DNA from: Escherichia coli
GTDB taxonomy: Bacteria > Pseudomonadota > Gammaproteobacteria > Enterobacterales > Enterobacteriaceae
Reading direction: 5' to 3' (one strand)
Length of the DNA stretch: 64,000 nucleotides
NCBI RefSeq assembly: GCF_022846255.1
Contig: NZ_AP025682.1
Part shown: positions 1 to 4,990 of the stretch, in pieces
Layout of the letters: each line of letters begins with the position of its first letter
Position numbering within the stretch: the stretch's first letter is position 1
The notes under the pieces: model-generated
What the model saw: only the letters and a program-made list of their open reading frames with translations
Told to the model about the DNA's origin: nothing
The model's database searches: none
Translations under genes and position numbers: made by a program

Positions 1-159
1 CTCACCGCTGCCAATCAGTGCTCCCAGCCCCGCCATCAGCACCGTACCGGGTAGAATCAAACCGACCAGCGCCAGCGACTCCAGAAAGGCCACCAATAAC
101 ACCGCCATCAATGAATACACGGTAGATTGGGTAATAAAGTGTTCCAGCAATGCTTGCAT
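1..159 (-). CDS. yabI: YabI (DedA-family inner membrane protein), 5' portion only; gene continues beyond window start
   Basis: Minus-strand reading from ATG (rc of cat at 157-159) gives MQALLEHFITQSTVYSLMAVLLVAFLESLALVGLILPG..., matching recalled E. coli YabI N-terminus; 85 bp from native araC stop as in K-12. Confidence 0.85.
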   Translation of the reverse strand, partial: MQALLEHFITQSTVYSLMAVLLVAFLESLALVGLILPGTVLMAGLGALIGSGE

Positions 160-244
160 AATGTGCCTGTCAAATGGACGAAGCAGGGATTCTGCAAACC
201 CTATGCTACTCCGTCAAGCCGTCAATTATCTGATTCGTTACCAA

Positions 245-294
245 TTATGACAACTTGACGGCTACATCATTCACTTTTTCTTCACAACCGGCAC
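245..294 (-). pseudogene. araC: Displaced araC 3' remnant: last codons (..AGCEEKVNDVAVKLS) plus native TAA stop, separated from the araC body by an insertion
   Basis: rc of 245-294 = gtgccggttgtgaagaaaaagtgaatgatgtagccgtcaagttgtcataa, identical to the araC 3' end as recalled from K-12/pBAD; no upstream in-frame continuation. Confidence 0.8.
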
Positions 295-313
295 AAAAGA
301 CACCCTCTGCCTA

Positions 314-736
314 TCATTCGATAGTCTCAAAATATTCCACCTGCAGAGAATCACGGTGCTCAATGATGCAATAACGCTGGAAATTATTTGCATAATCACT
401 TTTATCATGAAAAAACCATATACAATCGTTTTGTAGACTCGGTCCCATTCTTTTCAAAAAATCTATTAGCTTTGCTTTCTGAAGAAAAATGTTATCTATA
501 TTTCGCCATGTAACAATCACTCTTGTTTGCATATCATCAACATTATAGTAATAGCTATACTCGGCTACGTTTGATATGTTTGGCAAATTTCGCAAACTCT
601 CTGGCGTATAAAGGAAAAATGGGGAAAGTTCATGCTGTGTATAGTGATGTTCCTTTGACATCAATGAGATATAAGCATAGAAAAATATAAAGAATAAAAC
701 TAAAAATGATAATAAAATATAAATATATTTTGACAT
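314..736 (-). CDS. Hypothetical protein, 140 aa, with N-terminal hydrophobic transmembrane/signal-anchor segment; candidate immunity or accessory membrane protein
   Basis: ORF track; N-terminus MSKYIYILLSFLVLFFIFFYAYISL is a clear hydrophobic helix; ATG lies 6 bp after stop of upstream ORF (operon-like); no homolog recognised. Confidence 0.6.
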   Translation of the reverse strand: MSKYIYILLSFLVLFFIFFYAYISLMSKEHHYTQHELSPFFLYTPESLRNLPNISNVAEYSYYYNVDDMQTRVIVTWRNIDNIFLQKAKLIDFLKRMGPSLQNDCIWFFHDKSDYANNFQRYCIIEHRDSLQVEYFETIE

Positions 737-742
737 CTCTAC

Positions 743-1594
743 TCACGACCTGTGCGGATAATGAGGGTTTAAGAAAAGAAAAAGCGGTCTTTCAAAGGGA
801 GATTCTGAAAACTTTATAGCTCCCGAACTTGATAATGAACTATACAACTCATGATTTATTCTGTTTTTATCTTTATAATAATTAGTAACAGGTCTATTAT
901 TATATTGATTATATAACAATGTTGAAAAAGACTCATCTAATGGCTTTATATAATTTAACCATTCTGGAAGCTTCTTTTTTATTAGTTGATTTTTTTTAAA
1001 AGGAGGATGGGTTGTAAATAAGAATGGCGTAAACTCAGTATTTTTAAAATTCCCTGGCGCTCCATATGTATCCCATATTTGTAAGGCTTTTGTGTAAGAT
1101 AAAGGTTTTGCCAATAAAAGTGGATCGGGGCCTGTTCCAAATACACGATAAAAACCAATCAAGTCTGAGACTAAATCTTCTGCACTAAATCCGCTATCAG
1201 TATACCAGTTAAAAATAAATGAGTTTTGCCATGCTTCAAACCTCTTCGCAGTTCCATACATTAACGTTAAGGCAACTCTTGCTTTAAGAGTGGGTGAAAG
1301 ACATGAACGAACCATAACCTTCGTATAAACACCGGTATGAAATGTAAGATCTACTCCTAATATTTTTTTCCGAATTCCCATTTCCTGATGATAATCAACA
1401 GGAAAATACCAATCATGAAATTCATCGTAATATGTTGAAAAATGTTCTTGCTCCAATTTTCTTTTTAATATTCTGGCATCTTGTCCCTGAGCATGCCCCA
1501 AATCGATCCAACCTAACTCTTCGGTATAAACTAATCCATACTTTTTCGTTGTTGCAAATATTCCATCAGTAATATCGTTACGTTTTCTCATCAC
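743..1594 (-). CDS. Hypothetical protein ~282 aa (likely true start ATG at 1591 preceded by GAGGGGAG Shine-Dalgarno); no signal peptide; family not recognised
   Basis: ORF track (283 aa from GTG at 1594, ATG one codon downstream); rc upstream reads ...ttgaggggagattgtgatgaga; AT-rich codon usage atypical for E. coli core genes. Confidence 0.6.
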   Translation of the reverse strand: MMRKRNDITDGIFATTKKYGLVYTEELGWIDLGHAQGQDARILKRKLEQEHFSTYYDEFHDWYFPVDYHQEMGIRKKILGVDLTFHTGVYTKVMVRSCLSPTLKARVALTLMYGTAKRFEAWQNSFIFNWYTDSGFSAEDLVSDLIGFYRVFGTGPDPLLLAKPLSYTKALQIWDTYGAPGNFKNTEFTPFLFTTHPPFKKNQLIKKKLPEWLNYIKPLDESFSTLLYNQYNNRPVTNYYKDKNRINHELYSSLSSSGAIKFSESPFERPLFLFLNPHYPHRS

Positions 1595-2071
1595 AATCTC
1601 CCCTCAAAAAAAACGTATAGCAAATAATATCAATAAGGAAAAATATTATTTTTCAATATTTTTTTGTATACAATTCATTTTATGAATGAATTTACAAAGA
1701 TAGCTGCGCCTGATGCCGCTACACTTTTGCCAGACCATGTTCTCCTCTGAGGGAGTAACTGGCGTTTTTCATAGAATGCCGTACTTTTTTCAACAACTGC
1801 CACATCGAACGGCATTTATGGTGGCGTGAAGTGCCTGCCATAACCGCTCAATGTGGTGTTCCTACGATGAACAAACCGCTTGATATATTCTCCTGATGCA
1901 ACCGGACAATATGTTCATGATGGGTATCCCGATACATAAGCCTTCGTTTTATTTTTACAAAAAGAAATCGTTGTCGATATTTTATCAAGAAAAAAAATAA
2001 TTCAGGTAAAACGATTCAACTAAAAATAACTAAAATTAATCCCCCGTGAAATATATAAATAACGTCAGATG

Positions 2072-2104
2072 AAGAAAGCAAGGGGGTTCCCCCCCTTCTT
2101 TCTT
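2072..2104 (-). terminator. GC-rich imperfect inverted repeat (aagaaag..ggggg tt ccccccc..ctttctt) immediately 3' of the new araC stop; possible bidirectional terminator or insertion end structure
   Basis: Seen in sequence: gaagaaagcaagggggttcccccccttctttctt; flanked by T-rich tracts. Confidence 0.35.
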
Positions 2105-2105
2105 A

Positions 2106-2951
2106 TTATTCACAACCTGCCCTAAACTCGCTCGGACTCGCCCCGGTGCATTTTTTAAATACTCGCGAGAAATAGAGTTGATCATCAAAACCGACATTGC
2201 GACCGACGGTGGCGATAGGCATCCGGGTGGTGCTCAAAAGCAGCTTCGCCTGACTGATGCGCTGGTCCTCGCGCCAGCTTAATACGCTAATCCCTAACTG
2301 CTGGCGGAACAAATGCGACAGACGCGACGGCGACAGGCAGACATGCTGTGCGACGCTGGCGATATCAAAATTACTGTCTGCCAGGTGATCGCTGATGTAC
2401 TGACAAGCCTCGCGTACCCGATTATCCATCGGTGGATGGAGCGACTCGTTAATCGCTTCCATGCGCCGCAGTAACAATTGCTCAAGCAGATTTATCGCCA
2501 GCAATTCCGAATAGCGCCCTTCCCCTTGTCCGGCATTAATGATTTGCCCAAACAGGTCGCTGAAATGCGGCTGGTGCGCTTCATCCGGGCGAAAGAAACC
2601 GGTATTGGCAAATATCGACGGCCAGTTAAGCCATTCATGCCAGTAGGCGCGCGGACGAAAGTAAACCCACTGGTGATACCATTCGTGAGCCTCCGGATGA
2701 CGACCGTAGTGATGAATCTCTCCAGGCGGGAACAGCAAAATATCACCCGGTCGGCAGACAAATTCTCGTCCCTGATTTTTCACCACCCCCTGGCCGCGTA
2801 TGGTGAGATTGAGAATATAACCTTTCATTCCCAGCGGTCGGTCGATAAAAAAATCGAGATAACCGTTGGCCTCAATCGGCGTTAAACCCGCCACCAGATG
2901 GGCGTTAAACGAGTATCCCGGCAGCAGGGGATCATTTTGCGCTTCAGCCAT
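2106..2951 (-). CDS. araC: AraC arabinose regulator, C-terminally truncated (281 aa; ends ..[12 protein letters not shown] instead of ..AGCEEKVNDVAVKLS)
   Basis: ORF track translation from [23 protein letters not shown]... matches AraC; stop TAA at 2106-2108 is supplied by the inserted sequence. Confidence 0.93.

Positions 2952-4990
<2,039 letters not shown>

Follow-up and report, generated by a model that had tools for sequence, protein, structure and literature searches.

The Lipocone superfamily, with its ClaspCone-CapCone-TelC clade, was defined by Burroughs, Nicastro and Aravind (eLife 2025, PMC12419801; also on bioRxiv), who inferred that its catalytically intact domains remove or exchange phosphate-linked lipid head groups. 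The members with tested activity are PTDSS1/2 and TelC (PMC12419801), and TelC is the only tested toxin of the superfamily. TelC of Streptococcus intermedius is a type VII secretion system lipid II phosphatase toxin that is active only outside the cytoplasm, and TipC is its membrane-anchored, extracytoplasmic immunity protein. CapCone-1 is counted among the families recruited as toxin tips, and its published contexts comprise 94 N-terminal RHS fusions, a PsbP/Mog1 gene downstream (89), an Imm-BamE gene downstream (23), and HCP upstream (8) or downstream (8) (PMC12419801). Here we analyse two adjacent genes, one for a CapCone-1 protein and the other for a small protein with a predicted membrane anchor, in a stretch of 64,000 nt of Escherichia coli DNA (contig NZ_AP025682.1, assembly GCF_022846255.1; hereafter the window), in which the pair lies between araC and yabI.

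We consider it probable that the two genes form an orphan effector-immunity pair of the type VI secretion system (T6SS), in which the large protein would be a CapCone-1 toxin directed at lipid head groups and the small one a membrane-anchored MOG1/PsbP-like immunity protein. Context gives good support to the role as a toxin. Whether the protein is toxic, what it acts on, how it is delivered and whether its partner confers immunity we only infer. Should the proposal hold, some E. coli would possess a T6SS toxin belonging to a biochemical class for which that system has so far offered no demonstrated example, a Lipocone enzyme that attacks lipid head groups. We put forward more tentatively, and with some doubt, the stronger claim that the small protein represents a new family of periplasmic immunity proteins and that the E. 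coli pair is a working, Hcp-aided T6SS weapon that destroys a lipid-linked precursor of the cell wall or membrane. The pair would then be the first Gram-negative counterpart of TelC to be delivered by a T6SS, and it would be found in extraintestinal pathogenic E. coli. An earlier note made from the letters of this stretch (the sequence-only reading) had proposed a toxin/immunity or defence module, had found no assignable family and had thought the system undescribed. The toxin/immunity proposal has gained support from the CapCone-1 toxin family, from hcp neighbours and from an immunity-like partner. The other two judgements have to be given up, because the CapCone-1 family, the operon type and this very E. 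coli protein are all in the 2025 eLife survey and its source data; the pair is not new in kind. Clear homology to a characterised family, which the sequence-only reading had named as refuting it, is found only by half, since CapCone-1 has been described, but computationally only. The value of the present analysis is incremental, since the family and its probable role are already published. The pair is, at the same time, small and genetically tractable, and would be a convenient first test both of the CapCone-1 prediction and of an immunity as opposed to an adaptor role.

The two genes and the CapCone-1 protein

The large open reading frame (ORF) occupies positions 743-1594 of the minus strand and encodes 282 amino acids if translation begins, as in RefSeq, with the ATG at 1591, or 283 from an in-frame GTG at 1594. 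The small ORF, at 314-736 on the same strand, encodes 140 amino acids. Their products are RefSeq WP_000044501.1 and WP_000049681.1, respectively, both labelled 'hypothetical protein'. The stop codon of the large ORF (743-745) and the ATG of the small one (734-736) are separated by a 6-bp spacer (737-742, minus strand), which suggests that the two are translationally coupled. A Shine-Dalgarno sequence, GAGGGGAG, can be read directly from the DNA at 1598-1605 (minus strand), 6 nt 5' of the ATG at 1591. The sequence-only reading was accurate in describing two co-oriented ORFs 6 bp apart behind a strong Shine-Dalgarno sequence, and its estimate of about 30% G+C is close to the computed 32.9% for 314-1594; araC has 53% and the whole window 50%. 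Orthologues from Citrobacter portucalensis, Salmonella enterica and Trabulsiella share 65-70% amino acid identity with the large protein and 43-46% with the small one. The ratio of nonsynonymous to synonymous substitution rates (dN/dS) across the same three genera is 0.09-0.14 for the large gene and 0.16-0.20 for the small gene, with dS saturated. Both ORFs are real genes, given this purifying selection and the recurrence of the two-gene arrangement in other species.

The CapCone-1 source data of PMC12419801 contain an E. coli entry, CAR16209.1, that corresponds to residues 4-153 of the window protein with one substitution (A to V), and the same file holds close relatives from Rahnella, Xenorhabdus and others. 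We therefore assign the large protein to CapCone-1, within the Lipocone superfamily, as a soluble domain that stands alone; its membership of the family is secure. A profile search of 1.84 billion representative proteins recovered 791 clusters (E <= 0.001), in which standalone proteins of 200-350 amino acids predominate, and a Foldseek search of AFDB50 returned an RHS protein with the same fold. Members from E. coli, Citrobacter, Rahnella and Buttiauxella form a subfamily with a C-terminal extension of about 50 residues beyond the 230-residue majority. The sole Pfam match of the window protein was DUF4056 (PF13265), which fell below threshold (E = 0.46, 10.2 bits), and the DUF4056 profile reaches E <= 0.001 with five of 52 relatives. 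DUF4056, a sister family of CapCone-1 that PMC12419801 names CapCone-DUF4056, was considered as the family of the large protein and was dropped, since the source data list the exact sequence under CapCone-1.

The CapCone signature consists of a histidine on helix H2 with a glycine six residues before it and xD or DK four before; an aspartate on H4 that follows S/GxxSxx, with an aromatic-Ser pair three to four residues before it; and an acidic Glu on H3 (PMC12419801). The window protein has the H2 motif as G27-W-I-D30-L-G-H33 and the H4 motif as S133-G-F135-S136-A-E-D139. When conserved columns were scored in an alignment of 52 homologues, G27, D30 and H33 were at least 90% conserved, whereas S133, S136 and D139 were invariant, as was E119, which lies near the end of a modelled helix spanning residues 100-122. 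A small residue and an Asn four residues past the H4 Asp are 'usually' present in the clade (PMC12419801); the window protein has S142-D143, and most of the homologues carry Asp in place of Asn, a few having Asn. The predicted catalytic residues are H33, E119 and D139. The published CapCone fold has a four-helix cone core, a beta-hairpin clasp leading into H2 and a cap above the active site (PMC12419801). In the AlphaFold2 model of the large protein (predicted local distance difference test, pLDDT, 87.5; predicted template modelling score 0.86), a hairpin runs into the helix bearing H33 and is followed by a long beta-hairpin and two more helices that bear E119 and D139. The protein has no signal peptide, no hydrophobic N-terminus and no transmembrane segments, and its N-terminus is polar.

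Scans of both proteins against NCBIfam, PADLOC and PHROGs gave nothing usable, and no meaningful match to either was found in the PDB with single sequences or family profiles. The defence module offered by the sequence-only reading would here be an anti-phage system in which a membrane sensor is paired with a lipid-attacking abortive-infection effector. Some Lipocone families are indeed proposed to act in antiviral immunity (PMC12419801), and the pair is a two-gene, AT-rich island. However, PADLOC has no family that matches either of the two at E <= 1, PHROGs gives a single, non-significant match (E = 0.16) to a family of unknown function, the neighbours of related pairs are not defence islands, the linked gene, where there is any, is hcp, and the published CapCone-1 contexts are RHS, HCP and immunity genes (PMC12419801). 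We regard a defence role as highly improbable.

A putative periplasmic immunity protein

The small protein begins MSKYIYILLSFLVLFFIFFYAYISL, and residues 2-26 are modelled as one helix. Its AlphaFold2 model (pLDDT 94.5) has this long N-terminal helix followed by an alpha/beta domain, which bears out the single hydrophobic N-terminal helix and soluble domain proposed by the sequence-only reading. The modelled domain has a MOG1/PsbP-like fold, in agreement with the published 'PsbP/Mog1' label.

We surveyed the genomic context of the pair using one genome per species; 157 loci had a relative of the large gene and 80 were retained. In about 78 of these 80, a small ORF of 135-160 codons lies directly downstream of the large gene, and it is always downstream. 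Most often the two genes overlap by 4 bp, a gap of no more than 10 bp being the other common arrangement. The small ORFs are one family, since 81 of 84 were recovered by jackhmmer seeded with the E. coli protein. A hydrophobic N-terminal segment is present in 80 of 82 members, with an uncharged stretch of median length 24 residues, and the net charge is +2.1 before the helix and -1.1 after it. This positive-inside bias predicts that the soluble domain is periplasmic. Exactly two cysteines are found in the soluble domain of 52 of 80 members. The partner diverges faster than the large protein, identity between E. coli and Citrobacter being 46% for the small protein and 70% for the large one.

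Two to four small paralogues stand in tandem behind one toxin gene in Pantoea sp. A4 (locus L041, 10683-12845), Pectobacterium carotovorum, Enterobacter sp. Ag1 and Photorhabdus khanii, and such arrays are what orphan immunity genes would be expected to form. In all four indel-bearing E. coli carriers examined, the toxin gene is split or truncated and the small gene (423 nt) is intact, although these are too few independent events to be significant alone. The Nissle 1917-derived genome EcN_Sk and clone D i14 both have a frameshifted or fragmented toxin gene beside an intact small gene. No other candidate immunity gene was found in the two-gene islands examined. Three features make the small protein most likely the immunity protein for the large one: its predicted periplasmic orientation, its occurrence in tandem arrays and the survival of its gene beside decayed toxin genes.

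The published reading is different: the large protein would be a T6SS toxin and the small one an adaptor or chaperone, similar to DUF1795/Eag proteins, that loads the toxin, with immunity encoded elsewhere or unneeded. Eag chaperones are cytoplasmic, lack membrane helices, are encoded upstream of their effectors and bind effector N-terminal transmembrane segments. The partner family, in contrast, has a signal-anchor helix with positive-inside bias in 80 of 82 members and a Cys pair in most, its gene is always downstream, and the N-terminus of the toxin is not hydrophobic. Tandem arrays and survival after toxin decay are typical of immunity genes, and the two-gene islands would be left without any other candidate for that function. 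The signal-anchor helix, charge bias, Cys pair, downstream-only position and fast divergence therefore lead us to prefer immunity over transport, and we think an adaptor role unlikely.

Linkage to hcp and the state of the module in E. coli

The sequence-only reading had asked whether homologues lie in defence islands or near T6SS or Rhs loci. Of the 80 species loci, 16 have hcp adjoining the pair, and these represent at least four arrangements or clades. It is co-oriented and immediately upstream in two species of Buttiauxella, at a second paralogous pair in Rahnella, and in Vibrio ruber, Brenneria and two Pectobacterium, with a weaker case in Pseudenterobacter, and it is convergent and immediately downstream at eight Xenorhabdus/Photorhabdus loci. 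Buttiauxella and Rahnella members of the long subfamily show the order hcp, effector, small gene. Searches with S88 proteins as probes detected neither vgrG nor core T6SS genes within 10 kb at any of the 80 loci, and the pairs are therefore orphan islands. No hcp is present in the islands of E. coli (window and S88), Citrobacter or Salmonella. A genomic study of Salmonella has flagged a DUF4056 bicistron within the T6SS of Salmonella pathogenicity island 6 as a candidate effector.

The 64 loci with no T6SS gene nearby are what would be expected if the pair were not a weapon at all and instead formed a housekeeping or stress module for envelope lipids, consisting of a cytoplasmic or membrane-peripheral lipid-head-group enzyme and a membrane partner. 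In keeping with this, core genes surround the pair in Yersinia pseudotuberculosis and Serratia, purifying selection acts on the two genes, and many Lipocone families are described as metabolic rather than toxic (PMC12419801). Against it, the distribution of the module is patchy (9% among complete E. coli genomes), and several paralogous pairs can occur in one species (three each in Serratia plymuthica and Erwinia sp. 198). The adjacency of hcp is far above any plausible background, and RHS fusions occur in CapCone-1. The partner is fast-diverging and found in tandem arrays, and frameshifts were seen in the enzyme gene and none in the partner gene. We judge the housekeeping explanation to be quite unlikely.

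E. coli S88, the sole carrier with an intact toxin gene examined for a T6SS, has a copy of the module that is 99.9% identical, and its aspV island encodes a complete T6SS (tssA-M, two hcp genes and a vgrG). Its 159-residue Hcp shares 40-51% identity with the Hcps encoded beside related pairs (48-51% in Rahnella, Buttiauxella, Xenorhabdus and Photorhabdus), and its second Hcp shares only 28-34% with them. The two distinct hcp genes lie at opposite ends of the aspV cluster, and in the same island vgrG and a DUF2169 gene are followed by an annotated Cpe1/Cpi1 pair, a cysteine-protease effector with its immunity protein (L096, 35607-37311). At aspV, clone D i14 carries a different island instead of a T6SS cluster; that its toxin gene is also frameshifted is an anecdotal correlation. 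A blastn search of E. coli genomes with the Buttiauxella hcp found nothing.

We suggest that the large protein would be exported, probably by a T6SS encoded elsewhere in the chromosome such as that of the aspV island in S88, and that it most likely travels as a partner of the 159-residue Hcp. By analogy with TelC, it would act in the periplasm of a neighbouring Gram-negative cell, where it may cleave the phosphate-linked head group of lipid II, of another undecaprenyl-pyrophosphate-linked precursor or possibly of a phospholipid. The small protein would be held in the inner membrane by its N-terminal helix, with its MOG1/PsbP-like domain in the periplasm, and would most likely bind and neutralise toxin delivered by sister cells.

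The module is present in 486 of 5426 complete E. coli genomes (9%), always as a single chromosomal copy. Carriers include S88, IHE3034, APEC O18 and ABU 83972, and the window is 99.9-100% identical to S88, IHE3034, ATCC 11775 and ABU 83972. About seven of 30 evenly sampled carriers have a length change of 1-2 nt that truncates the toxin gene. Among clustered proteins, the full-length form (P0001) has 963 member sequences and a form of 202 amino acids (P0006) has 385; the latter ends ...PPFKKSN, where the intact protein reads ...PPFKKNQLIKKK. Two carriers (L099 and L100) have the toxin gene annotated at 609 nt. A run of eight A at 990-997 on the minus strand (T8 on the plus strand) is the probable frameshift site of the 202-residue variants. 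This run could be a slippage site that switches off the C-terminal extension of the toxin.

Such truncations raise the question of whether the E. coli copies are an inert, silenced relic, whatever their relatives do. The EcN and clone D i14 genomes examined have frameshifts in the toxin gene, other carriers encode the 202-residue form, clone D i14 lacks a T6SS cluster at aspV, no hcp is linked to the pair, and a promoter scan detected no promoter-like site directly upstream of the large ORF. The DNA is also AT-rich, which is typical of H-NS-silenced DNA. However, 485 of the 486 carrier copies are at least 99% identical, most with both ORFs intact, full-length proteins outnumber the 202-residue form, all predicted catalytic residues are kept and the carrier S88 has a complete T6SS. 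We consider a relic very unlikely.

Several observations weigh against the effector-immunity reading. The share of truncated toxin genes means that the module may be decaying in E. coli. The outcome of the promoter scan just mentioned also counts against it. Neither hcp, vgrG nor PAAR is next to the pair in the window, and these genes are missing within 10 kb in 64 of the 80 related loci. At 282 amino acids (about 33 kDa), the large protein is large for cargo of an Hcp ring. The small MOG1/PsbP-like partner is annotated in PMC12419801 as a T6SS 'transport-mediating' domain. Finally, our search of the literature by accession, by locus and for T6SS effectors acting on lipid II or undecaprenyl precursors found no experimental work on CapCone-1.

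The ara locus and comparison with known systems

The window begins with a partial yabI (minus strand), followed by the module, araC at 2106-3002 (minus strand) and then araBAD (plus strand). By blastn against K-12, positions 299-2101 interrupt the 3' end of a K-12-type araC and are flanked by an imperfect 25-bp direct repeat. The left copy (2102-2126, minus strand) forms the functional araC 3' end, ...F-R-A-G-C-E-stop. The right copy (274-298) and the K-12-type araC tail (EKVNDVAVKLS-stop), which together span 245-298 (minus strand), are non-coding in the window. Positions 1-298 are 97.7% identical to K-12, and this alignment overlaps the left one by 25 bp. The sequence-only reading had placed the pair in an insertion in araC, and a K-12-type araC 3' end is indeed split; AraC itself, however, is intact and ends ...RAGCE*, as in Citrobacter, Salmonella, Leclercia, Trabulsiella, Enterobacter and Buttiauxella. 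Among the enterobacterial AraC proteins examined, the 11-residue tail EKVNDVAVKLS is found in the K-12 type alone.

Citrobacter and Salmonella have the module at the same araC/yabI site, with DNA homologous to the K-12 tail lying non-coding beyond it. The horizontal origin proposed from base composition is plausible, but given this shared site it is not a recent acquisition peculiar to E. coli. A simple recent insertion into araC was considered and dropped, given the occupied site in Citrobacter and Salmonella and the homology of the K-12 tail to non-coding DNA elsewhere. In genera without the module at araC/yabI, the DNA homologous to the tail comes right after the stop codon of araC. The tail of the K-12 protein therefore probably reflects loss of that stop codon, possibly together with deletion of the module. 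Either the module was ancestral in E. coli and most lineages have lost it, or some lineages have regained it. The Salmonella copy stands between two perfect copies of a 9-bp direct repeat, TGTGAATAA (L010, around 9830 and 11320). This repeat resembles a target-site duplication left by an old transposition; it has decayed in Citrobacter, and in E. coli it extends over some 25 bp. A module of the long subfamily lies downstream of araBAD in Leclercia, Trabulsiella, Enterobacter sp. ENT03 and Buttiauxella, with hcp between in Buttiauxella, so that the module is associated with the ara locus at two different sites.

Directly 3' of the araC stop codon, at 2080-2097 (minus strand), a G+C-rich hairpin with a T run is a candidate araC terminator. 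The hairpin is strong and has T runs on both strands, and is likely to be a bidirectional terminator that insulates araC from the module; if so, the module would be transcribed from its own promoter. No RNA family was found by Rfam in window positions 1-3400. An IS630-family transposase remnant, a pseudogene at 1719-1858 (minus strand; coordinates converted from L001 4520-4659 in the RefSeq annotation of S88), lies between araC and the module. The spacer between the two is only about 165 bp in Citrobacter and Salmonella, which lack this remnant and also some 300 bp of further AT-rich DNA present in the E. coli spacer.

The closest described system is CapCone-1 as defined in PMC12419801, with which the pair shares the listed E. 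coli protein, the motif set and the operon type of a standalone CapCone-1 gene with a PsbP/MOG1-like gene and sometimes HCP. It differs in that the paper is silent on the E. coli locus and calls the partner a transport domain, whereas we favour immunity. DUF4056 (PF13265) has the same G-x5-H and SxxSxxD motifs, and some relatives 40% identical to the window protein are annotated as DUF4056; canonical DUF4056 genes, however, are linked to an outer-membrane beta-barrel gene (151 upstream) and not to hcp or a PsbP-like gene. The small protein has no sequence similarity to DUF1795/Eag proteins (SciW, EagT6) or to the periplasmic MOG1/PsbP-like proteins DcrB and LpqN, and unlike Eag proteins it has a signal-anchor helix and is encoded downstream of an effector that lacks transmembrane segments.

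The hcp-linked cargo effector-immunity islands of Enterobacterales, such as hcp-tae4-tai4, encode a periplasm-facing immunity protein in a small gene immediately downstream of the effector gene, and their target is the peptidoglycan peptide. Pairs homologous to ours likewise follow, or converge with, an orphan hcp away from the core T6SS genes, but the islands of E. coli, Citrobacter and Salmonella lack hcp and the predicted target is a lipid head group. TelC-TipC is also comparable, as TelC belongs to the same ClaspCone-CapCone-TelC clade as CapCone-1.

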